Part shown: positions 4,598-13,561 of the stretch, one piece after another
Position numbering within the stretch: the stretch's first letter is position 1
Layout: each line of letters starts with the position of its first letter
Notes under the pieces: model-generated
Told to the model about the DNA's origin: nothing
Database searches by the model: none
Seen by the model: the letters and a program-made list of their open reading frames with translations, nothing else
Origin: an uncultured Candidatus Micrarchaeota archaeon
GTDB lineage: Archaea; Micrarchaeota; Micrarchaeia; Anstonellales; Bilamarchaeaceae
Length of the DNA stretch: 64,000 bases
Assembly: GCA_963714085.1 (NCBI GenBank)
Contig: OY970229.1
Location: forward strand, 960,001-1,024,000
Direction: 5' to 3'
Program-made: the position numbers and the translations under genes

Positions 4598-4676
4598 TGC
4601 GCTTTTTTCGGGCCTTGCACATAAACTATGGCCTGCACATAAATTGGGGGGTTTGCACATAAATTAAGGGAAAAAA
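4598..4676 (+). repeat. Left direct repeat with 3x TGCACATAAA
   Basis: Motifs at 4616, 4634, 4654; aligns without gaps to 13483-13561. Confidence 0.92.
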
Positions 4677-4685
4677 ATAATAACT

Positions 4686-4925
4686 TCATATCCGGTGTTT
4701 CTCAATGAAGGTAAGGAGTTCTCCTATTGAGTGAAACATTGCGCTATCCCCGCTTTGGGCGTGTTCGACACTTCCTTCCCAAAAGTGTCTAGTGAACCTT
4801 TTGCTCAGGGCGTTTGAGCGTATGTCGTGCCCTCTTGCCGATAGTTTAGCCTTGCTCATATCCCAAAGCCGGATTACAAATTTCGGCATGTCGCCCTTTC
4901 TTTTTACTTCGATTGTACTCTTCAT
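4686..4925 (-). CDS. Small basic hypothetical protein
   Basis: 79 aa ORF with GAGG RBS, 10 bp downstream of 4936-5343. Confidence 0.6.
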   Translation of the reverse strand: MKSTIEVKRKGDMPKFVIRLWDMSKAKLSARGHDIRSNALSKRFTRHFWEGSVEHAQSGDSAMFHSIGELLTFIEKHRI

Positions 4926-4935
4926 GTAATCGCCT

Positions 4936-5343
4936 CTAAACTTTCCCTTTTTTCGCCTTGAAGCTCTTCGCGTACTCCTCCAAAGACTTGCCAGTCAGAT
5001 CCTTGACTTGCTTGTCTGCCCAATAGCTCAAACTGACCTTATTGTCATGAGTCCACTGGAGGCTCGCACGCTTTCCGGTGAAAAATCCGGCAGATCCCTT
5101 CTTATCCTTGCCCATCTCGACCCAAAGTTCGTCGACCCGCTCTTTTGGTATCGGAGCTCCGTTAGCCTCGTTGTAGATTCGGCTCCAGAGCTCCATGCGG
5201 TCCTTCATCCAGCTAGGAATCTCGGCTTCGAGTCCCTCCTCCTGAACCTGCAATTCGGCCAAAAGAGTCGACGCTTCTTCCAACAGTCCCTGTATTTTCT
5301 CGATTTTTTCTTTTTCCTTGGTCATAAAATCCTCCTCCGCCAT
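4936..5343 (-). CDS. Hypothetical protein (N-terminal coiled coil)
   Basis: 135 aa ORF downstream of an AT-rich promoter region. Confidence 0.7.
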   Translation of the reverse strand: MAEEDFMTKEKEKIEKIQGLLEEASTLLAELQVQEEGLEAEIPSWMKDRMELWSRIYNEANGAPIPKERVDELWVEMGKDKKGSAGFFTGKRASLQWTHDNKVSLSYWADKQVKDLTGKSLEEYAKSFKAKKGKV

Positions 5344-5480
5344 ACTTATTTTCTTATTAATATTATATAGTATAGATATACTGTTTTATAAATATATCAT
5401 TTTTATCAAGTTTTGAGAATAGAACAATAAAAAAGAATGTCGTCTAAAAGTGTTTTTAAATCTCTTCTTCGTAAGATTAT

Positions 5481-5567
5481 TGGTGTTCGGTACCTTTGGG
5501 GAACCCAAGGCCCCTAACGGGTTCGATCGATGAGATCGCCAACGGTAATGAGCCAAAGGGTGCACCA
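5481..5567 (+). ncRNA. Structured leader / ncRNA candidate upstream of the RNase H-PIN gene
   Basis: Nested complementary segments TGGTG/CACCA, CCTTTGG/CCAAAGG, GAACCC/GGGTTC, CGATC/GATCG; TTTTTAAA just upstream. Confidence 0.5.
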
Positions 5568-5577
5568 CATTGTATTC

Positions 5578-7065
5578 ATGGCATCCAAAGTCTACAGCAT
5601 CCCCAGCAAGGATGCATTTCTCGCCTTTAAACAGAGCATTTCGACTCGTTTCACTTTAGATAGTCTGGCGCCCAAACAGCACATGGAAGATTCTTTTTCA
5701 ATCAAGTCCCCGAGCGGCAATCTCAAGGTCGATTACTATGCGTCCGGAAAGCTCGTTTTACAAGGCAACGAAGGCATGCCGGTTTTTATAGCAATGAAAT
5801 CCGAGTTGGACAAGGCGTTCACACCTCTAGAAAAGCAAAGCCCCGCAGAAGCGGCAATCGACTTGTTTTTAATAGATAAAAAGTTCTTTATAGGAGGAGA
5901 TGAAGCAGGAACCGGAGAAACGTTTGGGAGCGCCTTTGTCGGCGTCATTGCATTCGAAAAAGAGTCCCTAAAGCAGCTCGCCGATTTCATTAAAGTGCGC
6001 GATGTGAAAAATGAGGGTAGGCAGGGCATCGGAAGCTTATTCCGTGCTGCCAAAAAACACATGTCAGCTTACAGAATAACCCCGATTACGGCATACCAGC
6101 TCGACATAAACAACAAGAATGTTCTTTTGGACGAGACATATGTTTCGCTTTTAAAAGAGCTGAAAGAGTATCTGCCCGCTTCCTGCATCATCATAGATGA
6201 TTACGGCGCAGGCCCACACTTACGTAATTTTTTGAAGAAATGCGAAGCAGAAGGCGCCCGCGTAATATTGGTCAACAAAGCCGATGCAACATACCTACCG
6301 TCGATGCTTGCTTCTGTTGTTGCCAGGGATGCGCGCCTGGAGGACATGGAGAAGTTGTCAGCAGAAAATGTCCTGATTAATAACGAGACAAACGAAAGCA
6401 TCGCCTTCACAAGCGGAAGCCCCTCAGATTCCAGCACGGAAAAATGGCTTCGGGAGTATAGGAAGATTAATCCGCACTCAGATTTTCCGCCTTTTGTCAG
6501 GAGAAAATGGGCTAATGTAATTCGGATTGAAAAAGAAGTCCCCAAGTCCAGCTTCGAGTACGCTTATACTTGCGCAAACTGCAAAGAAAAGGTGGGCAAA
6601 TCGTATTTTACCTTTCATAAAATAAAGAACGCGACTGAAATGCTATGCGCATGCGGTGCACCCATCGGAAAAAGCGAGATTACTACGACGTTCGGTAAAT
6701 GCTCGTTGGTACTAGATACGAGTGCCGTGATTGGCCGGATTCTTTCAAAGGACTTAGAGACATCGAGGTTAACGGCGGGCATGAAGGTTATACTACCTTC
6801 GTGTCTATATGAAGAATTAGACAAAAAAGAACCGGACAAAAGAAGGGGGGCTCTTCGCGAAATCGATTTTCTGAAGAAGAAAAGCGACGAAGGACTTATT
6901 CGGTTTGAAGAAGCGGATGTGTCTGCATGGGTTGGCATGTCATATGATGATCAAATCAAATATCTAGCGCAAACAAAAAAGGCAATTCTTTTGACCCAAG
7001 ACCGGAATCTCGCTGCTTGGACCGCCCTGGGGACATTCGTGTTCGAGATTAAGGTATTCGGCTAG
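5578..7065 (+). CDS. RNase HIII-like nuclease fused to a Zn finger and a C-terminal PIN domain
   Basis: YYASGKLVLQG (RNase HIII N-domain), GGDEAGTGETFG, IIDDY, KADATY..LASVVARD; CANC..CAC; VLDTSA..YEEL..DD..LTQD PIN residues. Confidence 0.8.
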   Translation: MASKVYSIPSKDAFLAFKQSISTRFTLDSLAPKQHMEDSFSIKSPSGNLKVDYYASGKLVLQGNEGMPVFIAMKSELDKAFTPLEKQSPAEAAIDLFLIDKKFFIGGDEAGTGETFGSAFVGVIAFEKESLKQLADFIKVRDVKNEGRQGIGSLFRAAKKHMSAYRITPITAYQLDINNKNVLLDETYVSLLKELKEYLPASCIIIDDYGAGPHLRNFLKKCEAEGARVILVNKADATYLPSMLASVVARDARLEDMEKLSAENVLINNETNESIAFTSGSPSDSSTEKWLREYRKINPHSDFPPFVRRKWANVIRIEKEVPKSSFEYAYTCANCKEKVGKSYFTFHKIKNATEMLCACGAPIGKSEITTTFGKCSLVLDTSAVIGRILSKDLETSRLTAGMKVILPSCLYEELDKKEPDKRRGALREIDFLKKKSDEGLIRFEEADVSAWVGMSYDDQIKYLAQTKKAILLTQDRNLAAWTALGTFVFEIKVFG

Positions 7066-7176: not shown

Positions 7177-9855
7177 TTATTTTGGTGGTTTAAACGCCCT
7201 AAGAATGAATTGTGCTTCGGCAGTATCAAGTTTTAAGGTGGATTCTAGTTTATGCCTCGCATCTATCCTCTTTTTCTTGGCTTCCTGCTCCAACTTCTGA
7301 GCGTCCATCAAGTTATTAACAAGCTCTCTAGAAAGATCTGCTGGGGGTAGAGGCATTTTAATAGAAGAAATTGTGTTCCATTTAACCCTTGTTCTATTGA
7401 CTCCAGTTGCAGTTAATAGTAAATCTGCCCGAACTTCTGGTGTTCGTAATAGCATCCATACGATGTATGGATCAAAACCAGCTTTTGCTTTCAAAATAGT
7501 GAATTCTTTAGCTACTACACAACCGTCAAATTCGGGCAGAACTACTGCCGCCGCACCATACGTTGCGCTGATGTGGCTAATAACAATTTGGCCAGTATGA
7601 ACACGATACAATTCTGGATATTTGCAATCCGATGCTAACTGTTCATCTCCCTTTCTTGCAAATCCGTCATATGTAACTAAGAGAAACGAGACACTTTCAC
7701 TAGATTCAGAAGTATCGATAACATCTTCTTCACTTGGTTCAATAGGTTCGACAAGTTCGGATAGACTAGCTACTCGAAGACCCATATTAGTCCAGTTACG
7801 AATCTGACGGCCTGGAGTTTCAAGGCACGATTTTACATCCATTCTATCGGCGATGCGGGAGGACGGCACTACGAATTTCCTGACTGATGGGTCACCATTT
7901 AGGAATCGGTGGAATAGTTCGACAACCGTTTTTATTTCAGAAATGGCGTTTTGCCGATTAATCGCATCAATGGGAAGAATTCTTTGACGTGCAGGGTCAT
8001 CAAGTCCGATATGTATGCAACCATACATGAATACAGAACCTTGCTCTTGCATGGCTCCCTCTGTTTTAGCATCGTCTTCATCAGCTTTTTTTTCGAGGTA
8101 TAGTAGAGAGGTTTTTACTCTTGCTTGTGAACGCTGAAATGCATCTCCGGGTAGGGAGATGACTGCTTTGACAATGAACTTTTTTCGTATAAAATCTCTA
8201 ACCCAACTCATATCAGAACCACTAAGTATGCCGTCATCGATAACTGTTACCATCCTTCCGCCAGTTTTCAGGAGGTCATAGTATCGTTCGAGAAACATGA
8301 TGCTTGATTTCAAACCTTCTCTCGGAGTTTTCTGGCCATTTTCTAAGTTAAAACCTAGTTCATATTGATCAAGAACCTTAGCCTCGGAAGGCGTTTTTCG
8401 GTCATACGTTTTAGCAAACGGTGGGTTGGTTATAACTACATCTGCAAATCCCTTGCGCCCGATTAATTTCGCTAGTTCTTTTTTTTCAACTTTGACTTCT
8501 AAACTATCATTAGTCAGTATCGTCAGCTCTTTGTCTAGCACATCAGCTTCAAAGATTTTACTTGCTCCATCTCCGTGCAAATGCATATTCATCCGAGTTA
8601 AACGGGACATGTTGGGTTCTTTGCCAGCATCCACTCCGAATAGCTGATTATCGGCAATCGCTTTTTTCATCTCTGCTTTTTGTTTTTGGGATAACGACGA
8701 GTTTGCATCTATTTTAGCCCATATCTCTACCAATGCCTCGATTAAGAATCCGCCCGTTCCGCAACACGCATCTAAAACAACATCACAACGATTTCGTTCG
8801 AGTTGAATGTCTGCAAGGCGTGTCCCCAGCTTAACTATGCTTCTTGGAGTAAAGAATTGACCCAAATCTTTACCTCGCATTGTTGCGTTCAGGAACCTTT
8901 CAAAGAGACGACCATTCAAGTCTGCTTCGATACCGAAAAGATAGATGTGTTCTAATTTCCCTACGACTCCACTTATGATTTCCGGGCTGAGATTGATGTG
9001 ATCATTAGCCTCAAAAATGCGTTTCGTAGTCCCATCTCGGATGGCCTTTTCAAGTTCTTCTAATAGTTCATGGAATTGAATCGTATCCATGGGATTTTGG
9101 GCATCACTTTCTCTGCTTTTAATCCATGAAGAAGAAAAATGAACATCCTCAGCTTTCACATTAAACTGTTTTAGATTAACTAACTCAGGATATTTCGCTC
9201 TGATAAAGCGGTCAGATAAAAGCTTCAGAAAGACTAGCTTTACAAATTCTTCAAAACCCGCAGCTTGACTGATATTACCTTTCTTGTAGATATACTGATG
9301 GCACCAAGCAAAAGTGGCATTGAGTGATTCGAGGGCGGTGGGCTTAAGAAGTTCGTGCATGTCCGTAGCTGGCATTGGCTCTTTCGCTACTAGGTTTTCT
9401 CTGCTCATTAGCCGCTGCAAGTCTTTGAACTTGGGATTAGAGTCAGTAAAGTCATCAAAGTTCATCTTCACGAGTGGCTTATCAGAATCCCACTCATATA
9501 GTTCAGTAAAAACACCATTTGTGATGAGAAAAAACTGAACTGGATTTTCATTTTTGAACGTTTGATTTAGCATCAGGCAGTAACCTGCGCATTGTGACAG
9601 ATACTTGTGTATCGGCTCTGATGGGGATTTGGCATCAATTACTAATCGAGGTTTAGTTTTCAACTTTATGATGTAGTCCGGCGTATATGGAACCTTTTTG
9701 CTTCCCAAAGAAACAACGACGCTCTTAATCTGAGTTTTTGGGATTATCTCACTGTCTTTGAAGCCCAAATCTTGCAGCAATCGATTTAGAAAAAACTGTT
9801 CTACTGACGCCTCGTTCGATAGATTTGTCGAAGCGCAGTATTTGTTTTTGCTCAT
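7177..9855 (-). CDS. Fused restriction-modification enzyme (HsdR_N-like nuclease, N6-adenine methyltransferase, target recognition domain; type IIG-like)
   Basis: NEASVE..PDY..IDAK nuclease motif, GQFFTPR, VLDACCGTGGFL, NPPF, HsdS-like C-terminus. Confidence 0.9.
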   Translation of the reverse strand: MSKNKYCASTNLSNEASVEQFFLNRLLQDLGFKDSEIIPKTQIKSVVVSLGSKKVPYTPDYIIKLKTKPRLVIDAKSPSEPIHKYLSQCAGYCLMLNQTFKNENPVQFFLITNGVFTELYEWDSDKPLVKMNFDDFTDSNPKFKDLQRLMSRENLVAKEPMPATDMHELLKPTALESLNATFAWCHQYIYKKGNISQAAGFEEFVKLVFLKLLSDRFIRAKYPELVNLKQFNVKAEDVHFSSSWIKSRESDAQNPMDTIQFHELLEELEKAIRDGTTKRIFEANDHINLSPEIISGVVGKLEHIYLFGIEADLNGRLFERFLNATMRGKDLGQFFTPRSIVKLGTRLADIQLERNRCDVVLDACCGTGGFLIEALVEIWAKIDANSSLSQKQKAEMKKAIADNQLFGVDAGKEPNMSRLTRMNMHLHGDGASKIFEADVLDKELTILTNDSLEVKVEKKELAKLIGRKGFADVVITNPPFAKTYDRKTPSEAKVLDQYELGFNLENGQKTPREGLKSSIMFLERYYDLLKTGGRMVTVIDDGILSGSDMSWVRDFIRKKFIVKAVISLPGDAFQRSQARVKTSLLYLEKKADEDDAKTEGAMQEQGSVFMYGCIHIGLDDPARQRILPIDAINRQNAISEIKTVVELFHRFLNGDPSVRKFVVPSSRIADRMDVKSCLETPGRQIRNWTNMGLRVASLSELVEPIEPSEEDVIDTSESSESVSFLLVTYDGFARKGDEQLASDCKYPELYRVHTGQIVISHISATYGAAAVVLPEFDGCVVAKEFTILKAKAGFDPYIVWMLLRTPEVRADLLLTATGVNRTRVKWNTISSIKMPLPPADLSRELVNNLMDAQKLEQEAKKKRIDARHKLESTLKLDTAEAQFILRAFKPPK

Positions 9856-10546: not shown

Positions 10547-11335
10547 CTATGGTTTCTCGGGTTTTGGAGGGTAATAGACCCCGATTATTAGCCACTCATT
10601 CCAATTACTCTCTGTTCCTACAAAAAAGTACACGTCCTTTTTAGATAAAAATTCCGTCTTATACTTCTGGACACATTTTTGAATTGCGGTTTCTTCAGTT
10701 CCATATTTCTTTAGCATCTGCCGATATAACTCCAACAATTCCCAGTCTTCTACCATCATATCATGACCAGGACAGGTAGCATCACACCTAAACTTATATG
10801 CAAAACGGTAAGGGATTTTGTCTAATGGACTTTTGTATGGTTCCCCCCCCAATGTCTTCTGCTTTCCTTCGACCAAATCTTTTTCCCAACCTCTTGCTTT
10901 TTCAATTGGTTCGGCATAAAAGTCGTCGATAAATTCTGGGTGGATGAATCCCAAAGACGTGTGGTCCTTATCATACTCGGTTTTAAGTGCCTCTATTGAT
11001 GGCATTAAGAATGGTAATAAGAACGTGTTTCGTTTTTTCCAGTCGCCTTCTGTAGGGATATACTTTCCAGTACGTACAATCGTATCGTCCTTGACTTTAT
11101 GACTTTCTTTCCGTTTGAACTTTTCATTCGGGTTGTGCTCCGCATTTACCTCGATCAACTCGAATTTATGAGGTCTTTTTTCATAAGGTAAATCGAAAAA
11201 TCTTACCGGGTATATCCTAATCCATTCTTTAGCGTCAATGTCAATTCCGGCCATACAAGCCGTTCGTTCATATTTTCGACTAAGGTTGGGGTATGTTTTT
11301 ACCAAAAGAAGAACCTTCCTTCTTTTGAATGTCAT
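10547..11335 (-). CDS. Conserved hypothetical protein associated with DUF488 (OB-fold-like)
   Basis: KTYP..S.KY.ETxCxAG..WIRIYPV-type N-terminus; coupled to the DUF488 gene by ATGA overlap. Confidence 0.65.
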   Translation of the reverse strand: MTFKRRKVLLLVKTYPNLSRKYERTACMAGIDIDAKEWIRIYPVRFFDLPYEKRPHKFELIEVNAEHNPNEKFKRKESHKVKDDTIVRTGKYIPTEGDWKKRNTFLLPFLMPSIEALKTEYDKDHTSLGFIHPEFIDDFYAEPIEKARGWEKDLVEGKQKTLGGEPYKSPLDKIPYRFAYKFRCDATCPGHDMMVEDWELLELYRQMLKKYGTEETAIQKCVQKYKTEFLSKKDVYFFVGTESNWNEWLIIGVYYPPKPEKP

Positions 11336-12135
11336 ATATCTACCACCCTGAACCCATCCCGAATCAATTTCTTTTTTATGATGCTCCTATGGCATTTGTT
11401 AACGTCCTTTTCAAAACACATCATCACCGTTTTCCTTACCTGAGCCAACCCTTCAAGATCCAACAACTGTTCTTGAGATTCGGGTTTTGATAGTGCTTCT
11501 TCGTACTCTTTAAAAAACTCAGGATAATCCCACCCCTCCCAAAGCTTATGTCTAAGTTCCCTTGGCGATCCTAAAAGCGGGAAGTGTTTGTATACAATCC
11601 CGTTTTCCTGAAGTGCTTTCGACAACGCTGATTTTGCAAAACCATTTTTCCTACTAAAAGCGAGTTCTCTTACGTCGATTACCTGCTGAACCCCATTTTC
11701 CTTCAAAACACCGACAAATTCTAATAGATTCTTGCCTTCGTATCCGATGGTAAATACTACAGTGTCGCTTTTATGCGGGAGATACCAGTAAGTCAAGGTC
11801 CCTTCCTTCCTTCTTTGAAGCTTAACCTCTTCTTCAAGTCGCCTAACCCATGAGTTGTTTGGGACTTCTTGTGGCAGACCGAGTTTGGTTTTTATATCAT
11901 GCCACGTCATGCCTGCCTTTGTTTTGTTCAATAAGTTCGTGATCTTAATTTTGAACTCTTCATACGTCAATACGTCCGATTTTATTACGACAAGTCCTTC
12001 CGTAGTTACATGAGTTTTGAGGTTTTGGCCTTCTTTCCATCCGAGTAATGCTATGTCGCTGGGTGGGATGGTTATTACCCATTTTGTATACTCTTTATCA
12101 TCGACCTTTCTGGATAGCTGTTTTTGTAATTGCAT
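11332..12135 (-). CDS. AbrB-like + helical domain + DUF488 fusion protein
   Basis: KWVITIP..LLGWKEGQ (AbrB-like); FTIGYEG, IDVR, SRKNGF, LGSP, MCFE..CHR (DUF488). Confidence 0.85.
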   Translation of the reverse strand: MQLQKQLSRKVDDKEYTKWVITIPPSDIALLGWKEGQNLKTHVTTEGLVVIKSDVLTYEEFKIKITNLLNKTKAGMTWHDIKTKLGLPQEVPNNSWVRRLEEEVKLQRRKEGTLTYWYLPHKSDTVVFTIGYEGKNLLEFVGVLKENGVQQVIDVRELAFSRKNGFAKSALSKALQENGIVYKHFPLLGSPRELRHKLWEGWDYPEFFKEYEEALSKPESQEQLLDLEGLAQVRKTVMMCFEKDVNKCHRSIIKKKLIRDGFRVVDI

Positions 12136-12144
12136 ATCTCTGTC

Positions 12145-12236
12145 TTAGGTACCAATATTTATATATCTTGGTAGGTACCTACATAGTATTTAAATCAATA
12201 GGTACCTAATATATCTGTAAGCTGTTAGGTACCTAA
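12145..12236. promoter_or_regulatory. Divergent promoter with four TAGGTACCTA-like palindromes
   Basis: GGTACC cores at 12148, 12174, 12201, 12228, interleaved with TATA-like TTTATATA and TTTAAA. Confidence 0.8.
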
Positions 12237-12244
12237 GATATGAA

Positions 12245-13471
12245 ATGATACACTGGATGATTGAAATGCCTGAACAAAACCCACCCTGCAAGCACTGCGG
12301 CTCTCCCTTCGTCATCCGAGACAGCGTAATCCAAACCGCCGAATGGGAGAACGGGATATACACCTGCTGCCGATGCATGAGGAGCTTCACCCAAAAGGTC
12401 GAGAAAAAGATGGAAATCGAAAGACCCGAAGGCTTCCAGTCCTTCCTCCCTCCGCCCAGCCCTACAGCGCCTATCCAATGGTCCCAATACAACGAGGCTC
12501 AGGTGCGCGAGAAGCTCCTGTTCCTCGAAATCCTCCAAGACCTGTGCTCCAGGCTTCCGGACGGAGAACCGGGCAAGGTAGGCCGTCCCAGGGCTTCCAC
12601 AAGAGAGATGGTCTTCTGCATGGTAGCCAAGCTCTACGAGGGACTGTCCTCCCGCAGGGTGTCTTCGGACCTCCAAATAGCCGCCCAAAGGGGCCATATC
12701 GCCAAGGTCCCGCATTTCAATACTGTCCTCAAGTACTTCAACGATCCCGGCATGGCGCCGCTCCTGACCGGGCTTATCCAGCTCTCATCGCTTCCTCTGA
12801 GGGACTTCGAGACCACGTTCGCGGTGGATGCAAGCGGCCTCAGCTCCGCGTTCTATTCGAGATGGTTCGATTACAGGTTCGGGCATCTCGACGGAAGGGA
12901 AAGCAAGGCCCACGACTGGATAAAAATCCACGTCGTCTGCGGGGTGAAGTCAAACATCGTGACCTCAATTGTTGTCACCGACGGCAAGACCAGTGACTGC
13001 CCCCAATTTCCCGCGCTCCTGAAGACCACGGCGGAGAACTTCGACGTCAAGGAAATCACGGCGGATAAGGGTTATTCAAGTCGGCGGAATATCGACGCGG
13101 CATTCGAGATCGGCGCCGTCCCGCTCATCCCATTCAAGTCCAATACTACGGGAAACGCGGGCGGAAGCCTAGCCTGGAGCAAGATGTACCATTACTACCA
13201 GCTGCAAAGGGAGGCTTTCCTGGCTCGGTACCACCAGCGGAGCAACGTAGAAAGCACGTTCAGCGCCCTGAAAAGGAAGTTCTCGACCAAGCTTATGCTG
13301 AAAAACGAGCCCGCCCAGGTCAACGAAGCCCTTGCCATGATCCTTTGCCACAACATCTGCGTCCTGATCCGGGAAGCGTTCGAGAACGGGATTTCTACTG
13401 AGTTCGAGGGGGTTGCACATAAAGTTCCGGTGCTGCACATAAAGGAGGGGATAACGTTTGGAAATCGCTAA
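12245..13471 (+). CDS. DDE transposase (IS4/IS5-like, DDE_Tnp_1 type) with N-terminal Zn ribbon
   Basis: AVDASG, WIKIH, TADKGYSS, YHQRSNVESTFSALK (Y-2-R-3-E-6-K); CKHC..CCRC. Confidence 0.9.
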   Translation: MIHWMIEMPEQNPPCKHCGSPFVIRDSVIQTAEWENGIYTCCRCMRSFTQKVEKKMEIERPEGFQSFLPPPSPTAPIQWSQYNEAQVREKLLFLEILQDLCSRLPDGEPGKVGRPRASTREMVFCMVAKLYEGLSSRRVSSDLQIAAQRGHIAKVPHFNTVLKYFNDPGMAPLLTGLIQLSSLPLRDFETTFAVDASGLSSAFYSRWFDYRFGHLDGRESKAHDWIKIHVVCGVKSNIVTSIVVTDGKTSDCPQFPALLKTTAENFDVKEITADKGYSSRRNIDAAFEIGAVPLIPFKSNTTGNAGGSLAWSKMYHYYQLQREAFLARYHQRSNVESTFSALKRKFSTKLMLKNEPAQVNEALAMILCHNICVLIREAFENGISTEFEGVAHKVPVLHIKEGITFGNR

Positions 13472-13561
13472 TTTGTGTGCAATGCCCTTTTTTCGGGATT
13501 TGCACATAAACTAGGGGCTGCACATAAATCGGGCTGCTTGCACATAAAATAAGGGATAAAA
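13414..13561 (+). repeat. Right-end motif array and right direct repeat
   Basis: TGCACATAAA at 13414, 13434, 13501, 13519, 13539; inverted variant TTTGTGTGCA at 13472. Confidence 0.92.

Follow-up and report, generated by a model that had tools for sequence, protein, structure and literature searches.

Genomic setting of the gene

The window, by which we mean the whole stretch of 64,000 nucleotides analysed here, carries Cdc6, TFB and TBP genes that mark its host as an archaeon. An insertion of ~8.9 kb between the TFB and DUF655 genes contains a plus-strand gene (5578..7065), delimited from its open reading frame, Pfam, TIGRFAM and AlphaFold, that encodes a four-domain protein of 495 amino acids. 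The insertion is absent from two congeners (G401 and G402), in which the flanking TFB and DUF655 genes stand ~150-210 bp apart, and it is low in GC—the gene has a GC3 of 0.51, against ~0.85 in the flanking core genes. It is bounded by a pair of 79-bp direct repeats (4598..4676 and 13483..13561; 86% identical and not found at the G401/G402 junctions), the right copy lying behind a plus-strand gene for an IS5-like DDE transposase (12245..13471; Pfam and NCBIfam). On the minus strand, the insertion further holds a gene for a fused R-M-S protein of 892 amino acids (7177..9855; Pfam, NCBIfam and PADLOC), which is not a conserved partner, and DuOB-like and DUF488 genes (10547..12135) that match the PADLOC candidate PDC-M19B/M19A. 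Together with the transposase, these genes bear out the defence-island setting proposed in an earlier note on this DNA. The host genome also has a canonical rnhB with the GRG motif and tyrosine, so the fused gene is a second, accessory RNase H, and canonical RNase HII is likewise present in the four other fused-gene genomes examined (5/5 with the host). We place the start of the gene at the ATG at 5578 and not at the upstream ATG at 5530, as listed, because the latter falls within the RNA element described below and 5578 is where homologues start; for P0097, a call of 534 aa likewise reads through the RNA element.

Several other features of the island and its surroundings were recorded. A 10-bp motif occurs eight times at the island ends (4598-4676 and 13414-13561) and twice elsewhere in the genome; these motifs are likely transposon-end sites, and the island may therefore move as a composite unit. 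The R-M-S fusion (7177-9855) is similar to the MADS2 and MADS5 models below their cut-offs, and the DUF488 protein of the 10547-12135 pair has an additional N-terminal region. An imperfect palindrome (12145-12209) lies between the divergent DUF488 and transposase genes, two small divergent ORFs of the island (4686-5343; 79 and 135 aa) have neither a family match nor a counterpart elsewhere among the loci, and a Pfam-negative ORF of 394 aa (1349-2533) follows cdc6.

Domain architecture of the protein

All four domains are encoded on the plus strand. Residues 1-84 (5578..5829) form a TBP-like N-domain in which Y54, S56 and Q62/G63 align with the hybrid-binding positions of RNase H3; the family profile matched the TBP structure 1mp9 (E 3.5e-4) and aligned to the N-domain of Aquifex RNase H3. 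A type 2 RNase H domain follows (residues 101-322; 5878..6543), with D108, E109, D207 and D236 and an H3-type glutamate (E114), then a four-cysteine zinc ribbon (6565..6663; C332, C335, C357 and C359) that would bind zinc and, finally, a PINA/YacL-like PIN domain (residues 374-495; 6697..7062) with D380, E413, D457 and D475. This architecture agrees with the reading of the earlier note, which had listed an RNase HIII-type N-domain, an intact catalytic set, a CxxC...CxC finger and a C-terminal PIN domain with its acidic residues. In Pfam, RNase_HII covers residues 105-314 (E 1.3e-16) and PIN_4 gives a sub-threshold match at 377-478 (E 0.013); the RNase HIII model TIGR00716 matches residues 40-263 (E 2.3e-17) with 63.2 bits, below its equivalog cut-off of 161.2.

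The AlphaFold model of the 495-aa protein had a mean pLDDT of 87.9, and its Foldseek matches were RNases H2/H3 and PIN domains. When modelled alone, the C-terminal 174 residues gave a single folded unit (pLDDT 90.6, pTM 0.86), with 5f4h (PIN of PINA; Z 13.8), 3i8o (MJ1533; 13.8) and 3ix7 (TTHA0540; 13.0) as its best PIN matches; the match at Z 13.8 spans 118-121 residues, and the zinc ribbon was barely covered by the fold search. The PIN fold and its four acidic residues place this domain in the PIN superfamily, and the structure check rules out a non-PIN fold. VapC toxin structures reached only Z <=7.7; since the domain is closest to PINA/YacL (Z 13-14) and not to VapC, 'toxin' is not readable from the fold, a correction to the earlier interpretation. 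PINA/YacL PINs are not listed as TA toxins in the accessible part of a PIN classification (PMC5499597). Moreover, the PIN domain is fused and has no conserved adjacent protein antitoxin at the 21 loci compared, which sets it apart from VapBC. No PADLOC model matches the 495-aa protein, and none of the ToxN, CptN, TenpN or AbiF (HEPN) families was matched by it in Pfam, NCBIfam and PADLOC. Homodimer prediction for the full protein, run twice without controls, scored 0.00 and was given no weight either way.

The RNase H half mixes features of RNases HII and HIII

The catalytic half has the RNase H2/H3 fold with four carboxylates that defines type 2 RNases H in the broad sense. With bacterial RNase HIII (RnhC; Ta-RNase H3, PDB 4py5) it shares the TBP-like N-domain with its Tyr, Ser and Gln-Gly positions, the DExGxGE motif with an equivalent of Glu84 after GxG (E114, found in 53/55 homologues) and the lack of a junction tyrosine (S281 here). 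It differs from that enzyme in its fourth carboxylate, which is not the Glu of a D-E-D-E site (D236 here; Asp in 47 and Glu in 7 of the 55 homologues), in its archaeal-H2-type C-terminal helices, in the added zinc ribbon and PIN domain, in a score below the TIGR00716 cut-off and in forming a separate, accessory clade. Archaeal RNase HII (RnhB) supplies the best sequence and structure matches (1uax) and has in common with the family the DEDD set, with Asp as the fourth ligand, and the C-terminal extension, whereas the family lacks both the GRG arginine (GTG in the window protein; Arg at this position in 6/55 homologues) and the tyrosine, and the host has its own rnhB.

In catalytic-domain trees (56 rows picked from 100), the family falls on one side of a branch with an SH-aLRT of 89; it is sister to HIII at a support of 80, and archaeal HII as its sister is not rejected (p-AU 0.563). 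The catalytic domain forms a lineage apart, in which traits of H3 are combined with those of archaeal H2, and it belongs neither to canonical RNase HII nor to canonical RNase HIII—so that the RNase HIII identity given in the earlier note holds for the H3 features, and not for membership in the bacterial enzyme. The known roles of type 2 RNases H are in housekeeping; the family would represent a third lineage beside HII and HIII, living as mobile cargo, and it bears on how RNase HIII arose because it combines the traits of H3 and archaeal H2. We predict that hybrids are cut and that single ribonucleotides are not repaired by this domain. In the accessible sections of the respective studies, loss of Glu84 lowers the activity of Ta-RNase H3 100-fold (PMC4132731), and the junction tyrosine is needed for single-ribonucleotide cleavage by RNase HII (PMC3025331). 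A fusion of this type is not mentioned in the available part of a survey of TBP domains (PMC3597702).

A divergent family with fused and PIN-less forms

A first search returned 66 relatives, 13 of them full length with 31-44% identity, and a profile search found 101 proteins with E <=1e-30. The family comprises at least 55 divergent near-full-length proteins, which were picked by length and aligned; its named members come from DPANN-type archaea, an Aenigmatarchaeota MAG and a few bacteria, and a 240-member cluster in the ESM Atlas is labelled RNase_HII only. Among these 55 homologues, the RNase H acids are retained in 53 (D108), 53 (E109), 54 (D207) and 54 (D/E236) sequences, the cysteines in 52 (C332), 52 (C335), 49 (C357) and 52 (C359), and the PIN acids in 50 (D380), 45 (E413), 44 (D457) and 46 (D475). 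An insert of 10-40 aa ahead of the zinc ribbon splits the family into two clades. In clade A (n=28, window protein included), both acid sets, of four PIN and four RNase H residues, are complete in 28/28 proteins and the four cysteines in 26/28; in clade B (n=27), the PIN acid set is intact in 14/27. PIN-less forms are nested within fused ones at several places in both clades of a FastTree reconstruction (100 rows, in which some short proteins may be contig fragments). By this nesting, the fused form looks ancestral within the family, with repeated loss of the PIN domain.

The gene is rare, and its family has a sporadic distribution over integrated elements, casposons and R-M islands. Within its own phylum, the fused form was found in 1/401 genomes sampled; 20 weak matches in the same set were discarded as PIN-ATPases, all of which carry Walker A and lack the RNase H motif. 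The family occurs in 1/401 genomes of the phylum of G410, in 1/26 genomes around G411 and in 15/301 nitrososphaerial genomes, 14 of these with a PIN-less form. No relative was confirmed in viral contigs searched with protein queries, and a tblastn search of phage and plasmid collections with P0087 gave no match.

The PIN-less forms have settings of their own. In Nitrosopumilus, a form of 329 aa follows a gene for a DinG/XPD-like helicase, together with a divergent NERD nuclease (L009:7426-10876; also L012, L015, L023 and L024), often with integrases or transposases nearby—possibly a three-gene mobile module. The PIN-less form of WOR-3/Hydrothermota (L018:9677-10669; L022:81-1019) adjoins parA/parB or metabolic genes and is the sole full-length RNase_HII match; it may have been domesticated as the RNase H of the cell. 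A separate protein, the third type 2 RNase H of genome G408 (L091; G408:C5:63054-63650), groups with bacterial RNase H3 and shows no N-domain.

Neighbourhoods of the fused genes

To the window locus we added 20 other fused loci, in which 149/158 ORFs within 5.5 kb were scanned with Pfam and 59 ORFs with PADLOC. Their neighbours include integrases (L003, L016, L075, L076, L083), casposon Cas1 alone or together with PolB (L079-L081), type I/II R-M (L019, L069, L082), OLD/AAA_15 ATPases (L074, L075, L080), DarT (L020) and HNH (L070). In two casposon-like elements (L079:7685-14274 and L081:1726-8299), the fused gene and its RNA stand between cas1 and a gene for protein-primed PolB. No protein partner is conserved among the 21 loci, only integrases and Cas1 recurring in more than two. 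Scored with five marker families that cover integrases, DNA methyltransferases, AAA_15 ATPases and Cas1, 13/21 loci (9/12 clusters at 70% identity) are positive within 5.5 kb, compared with a baseline of 0.099 of positions in five host genomes and with 1/5 canonical rnhB genes in range of a marker; these markers were chosen after inspection of the loci and indicate mobility more than defence. The marker-negative loci are L020, L070, L071, L072, L073, L078, L084 and L085, four of which are on short contigs. Most homologues lie outside housekeeping contexts, so that the second condition named in the earlier note as refuting its reading did not arise; L072 is placed among housekeeping genes.

These distributions bear on a reading without any defence role, in which the protein is an accessory hybrid-clearing enzyme that removes R-loops or primers for an element or its host, the PIN domain degrading the released RNA and the upstream RNA tuning expression. 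The C-terminal end of the PIN-less Nitrosopumilus forms, which we take to be a PIP-box-like motif, would fit such a role, and so would the short form of WOR-3/Hydrothermota, the only full-length RNase_HII match amid housekeeping genes. The PIN domain, moreover, is PINA-like, and PINA acts at forks and Holliday junctions according to the accessible parts of two reports (PMC6061704, PMC6555300). Against this reading stands the rarity of the family (1/401, 1/401 and 1/26 genomes, always with a canonical RNase HII as well); the genes also occupy cargo positions in unrelated element types and gave no match in the phage, plasmid or viral collections, where replication helpers would be expected. On balance, we consider the hybrid-clearing reading improbable.

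A conserved structured RNA upstream of the gene

Between a TATA-like box (5453..5460, plus strand) and the start codon lies a structured RNA of 87 nt (5481..5567, plus strand), which ends 10 nt before the ATG. This element is not in the earlier note, and it changes the likely mechanism of control. The box, centred ~24 nt upstream of the first paired base of the RNA, is likely an archaeal promoter; AT-rich boxes stand at similar spacing in most of 16 aligned loci, as judged by eye, and a sigma-70 scan remained at chance level, sigma-70 models not covering archaeal promoters. Flank comparison revealed a stretch of 64-88 nt upstream of the gene in which the window shares 75-81% of nucleotides with loci at ~33-44% protein identity. 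The fold derived from the alignment consists of the outer stems P0 (5481-86/5562-67) and P1 (5493-99/5553-59), a K-turn (GA at 5501-02, 3-nt bulge at 5547-49, GA at 5550-51), P2, a 3x3 internal loop and P3, which closes a three-way junction whose two hairpins are linked by UUC (5522-24), all on the plus strand.

Covariation argues for this fold. On a 17-locus alignment, RNAalifold called 26 pairs, 18 of them with two-sided (compensatory) changes; in a trimmed alignment of 16 rows, 95.7% of cells are paired (34-49% in slid controls), and 0/500 shuffles reached any of its pairing measures—a result that is not a probability, because the aligned rows are related. The fold is kept in the most distant rows, whose identity to the window RNA is no more than 43-61%; by itself, the window RNA folds no better than shuffles (z -0.28). 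As read from the alignment, tandem G:A and A:G pairs come after a 3-nt bulge in the predicted K-turn, with a covarying helix on either side, in line with the definition in the accessible part of PMC8191799; both GA dinucleotides are invariant in 16/16 rows, and 3b:3n is mostly A:G. Outside the K-turn, the UUC junction and the internal-loop adenines are unpaired and invariant. In many loci, T-rich runs come after the RNA, which is single-copy and free of repeats; a search of sequencing runs listed no run with it. A guide-RNA reading was rejected, as the RNA offers no extended single-stranded region that varies. The compact fold with its invariant junction and loop bases would suit a self-cleaving ribozyme or a small-molecule riboswitch controlling how much nuclease is made; against such a role stand the lack of a match to any Rfam family (E up to 5; second search, E up to 1), covariation that is explained by nested structure with no pseudoknot needed and a strict linkage to one gene clade, and we hold this reading to be very improbable.

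The RNA accompanies clade-A fused genes

A search with model R1 over 49 sources (matches at E <1e-6) returned 19 matches, all directly upstream of clade-A fused genes. The RNA precedes 19/19 clade-A fused genes with upstream DNA, the sequences of L070 and L084 ending inside the gene. Since 16 of the 19 matches are rows that trained R1, there is little out-of-sample support, which comes from L071 (partial, E 2e-7) and from two near-copies (L074 and L080). R1 matched 0/18 PIN-less loci and 0/15 further PIN-less loci, some of them the same as before, and it had no match in the clade-B fused loci L020 and L136 or in the RNase H2/H3 controls; these two clade-B loci share no upstream element with each other either. 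On whole genomes, R1 gave one match in the host and none in four others, and the RNA core pattern was found in 1/371 genomes—the holder of the gene—and in 0/301. Two viral matches to the core pattern (L133 and L134) were dismissed as chance, being antisense in coding frames and without the outer stems; R1 scored L133 at E 2.6 and did not list L134. As the PIN-less forms nest at several places in the fused family, PIN domain and RNA appear to have been lost together more than once, in what we count as two or three independent events. L020, which has the PIN acids and no RNA, indicates that not every intact PIN in the family requires the RNA.

The position of the RNA between the TATA-like box and the start codon raises the question of a purely cis-acting leader, at which translation would be limited or early termination caused, either by the protein itself, through binding or feedback cleavage, or by L7Ae of the host acting on the K-turn; the protein would then be an auto-inhibited or constitutive anti-invader nuclease that forms no stable complex with the RNA. 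The canonical K-turn, with its invariant GA pairs (16/16) and a 3b:3n that is mostly A:G, fits this possibility, as do the T-rich runs after the RNA in many loci and the fact that both RNA-less fused loci fall in clade B. However, the invariant unpaired bases beyond the K-turn are shared by DPANN-type and nitrososphaerial hosts, at a protein identity of ~33%. Their invariance across such distant hosts suggests a surface for a specific ligand that travels with the RNA, more than L7Ae would require, and a leader acting in cis only, although possible, strikes us as rather unlikely.

A candidate RNA-controlled defence module

A role in conflict of some kind is quite likely for the gene. To the narrower reading that it belongs to an RNA-antitoxin-type defence module, with the PIN domain as effector and the RNase H half as sensor or processor of hybrids, we assign about an even chance, ahead of the alternatives discussed above. 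The small folded RNA in front of a rare mobile gene suggests an undescribed RNA-controlled anti-virus or addiction module. A brake on a toxic nuclease would be the simplest function of the RNA, because it travels and is lost with the intact PIN domain and because there is no protein counterpart.

In such a mobile two-part module, one promoter would drive both the small structured RNA and the dual nuclease. The RNA would form the 5' end of the transcript, as the promoter spacing indicates, and would probably also be released as a short RNA. It may bind its own protein, most likely at the zinc ribbon-PIN half, and either keep the protein inactive or limit its synthesis. Infection could upset this balance in two ways: the RNA may decay after host shut-off, or the TBP-like/RNase H half may engage invader RNA/DNA hybrids and thereby free the PIN domain. 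The freed PIN would cut cellular or viral RNA, leading to dormancy or death. Transcription, RNA-protein binding, toxicity, the trigger and defence itself are all steps that we infer. A more specific version—a new archaeal RNP immune module in which the K-turn RNA locks the PIN domain, and the fused RNase H senses invader hybrids and unlocks the PIN by displacing or cutting the RNA—is one that we put forward tentatively and regard as unlikely.

Precedents exist for the individual parts, each as given in the accessible portion of its source. AbiF comes nearest, its upstream RNA being a repressor in cis that also neutralises the protein in trans (PMC12373285). PIN-based defence by a single protein with no antitoxin has been validated (PMC13092281). 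RNase LS proteins in which HEPN is joined to TBP-like or RNase H domains have been read as hybrid-directed defence (PMC3710099), and the cargo position that the fused gene takes in casposons is also one for OLD and HEPN nucleases, which are of defence type (PMC6563490). Several points weigh against an RNA-antitoxin-type module, namely the RNA-less loci L020 and L136, the PINA/YacL affinity of the PIN domain and the lack of a PADLOC match. An RNA 10 nt before the start codon suits a plain cis-regulator equally well, and mobile elements also carry non-defence cargo.

If the more specific version with the K-turn lock is correct, the module would be the first to pair an RNA antitoxin with a PIN effector, the first RNA-antitoxin system in archaea, as far as searched, and the first case of a type 2 RNase H as an immune sensor. 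Neutralisation of the protein by the RNA would extend RNA antitoxins to PIN nucleases and to archaea, and a triggering role for the RNase H half would make RNA/DNA hybrids an infection signal. The covarying, Rfam-absent RNA tied to the intact-PIN clade also defines a testable two-part system of 87 nt and 495 aa. In the literature searched, which included the supplement of PMC6563490 in its accessible part and left most subscription journals and bioRxiv supplements outside, we found no description of the fusion or of the RNA; as far as searched, the combination is undescribed, in keeping with the earlier note, which did not recognise the architecture.

Comparison with known systems

Taken as a whole, the module does not appear to belong to RNase HII, RNase HIII, VapBC or any of the named type III families, and it plausibly works like type III. 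It resembles AbiF and the type III TA systems (ToxIN, CptIN, TenpIN) in the conserved structured RNA that stands right in front of the nuclease gene, in the lack of a protein antitoxin and in its mobile setting. In contrast to these systems, the nuclease domains are RNase H and PIN, not HEPN or the ToxN fold of the known toxin families, the host is archaeal and neutralisation is putative. ToxI-type antitoxin RNAs have repeats, whereas the RNA found here is single-copy and built around a K-turn and a three-way junction. RNase LS (RnlA/LsoA) is similar in that a hybrid-binding or RNase H module is fused to an RNase effector; the effector is HEPN there and PIN here, the RNase H module is RNase H1-like there and of type 2 here, and RNase LS has a protein antitoxin, RnlB. 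Finally, PINA (PIN-ATPase) and PIN.COG4956 provide the nearest PIN structures (Z 13.0-13.8), but the protein described here has no ATPase, KH, TRAM or membrane part and is not encoded by a core gene.
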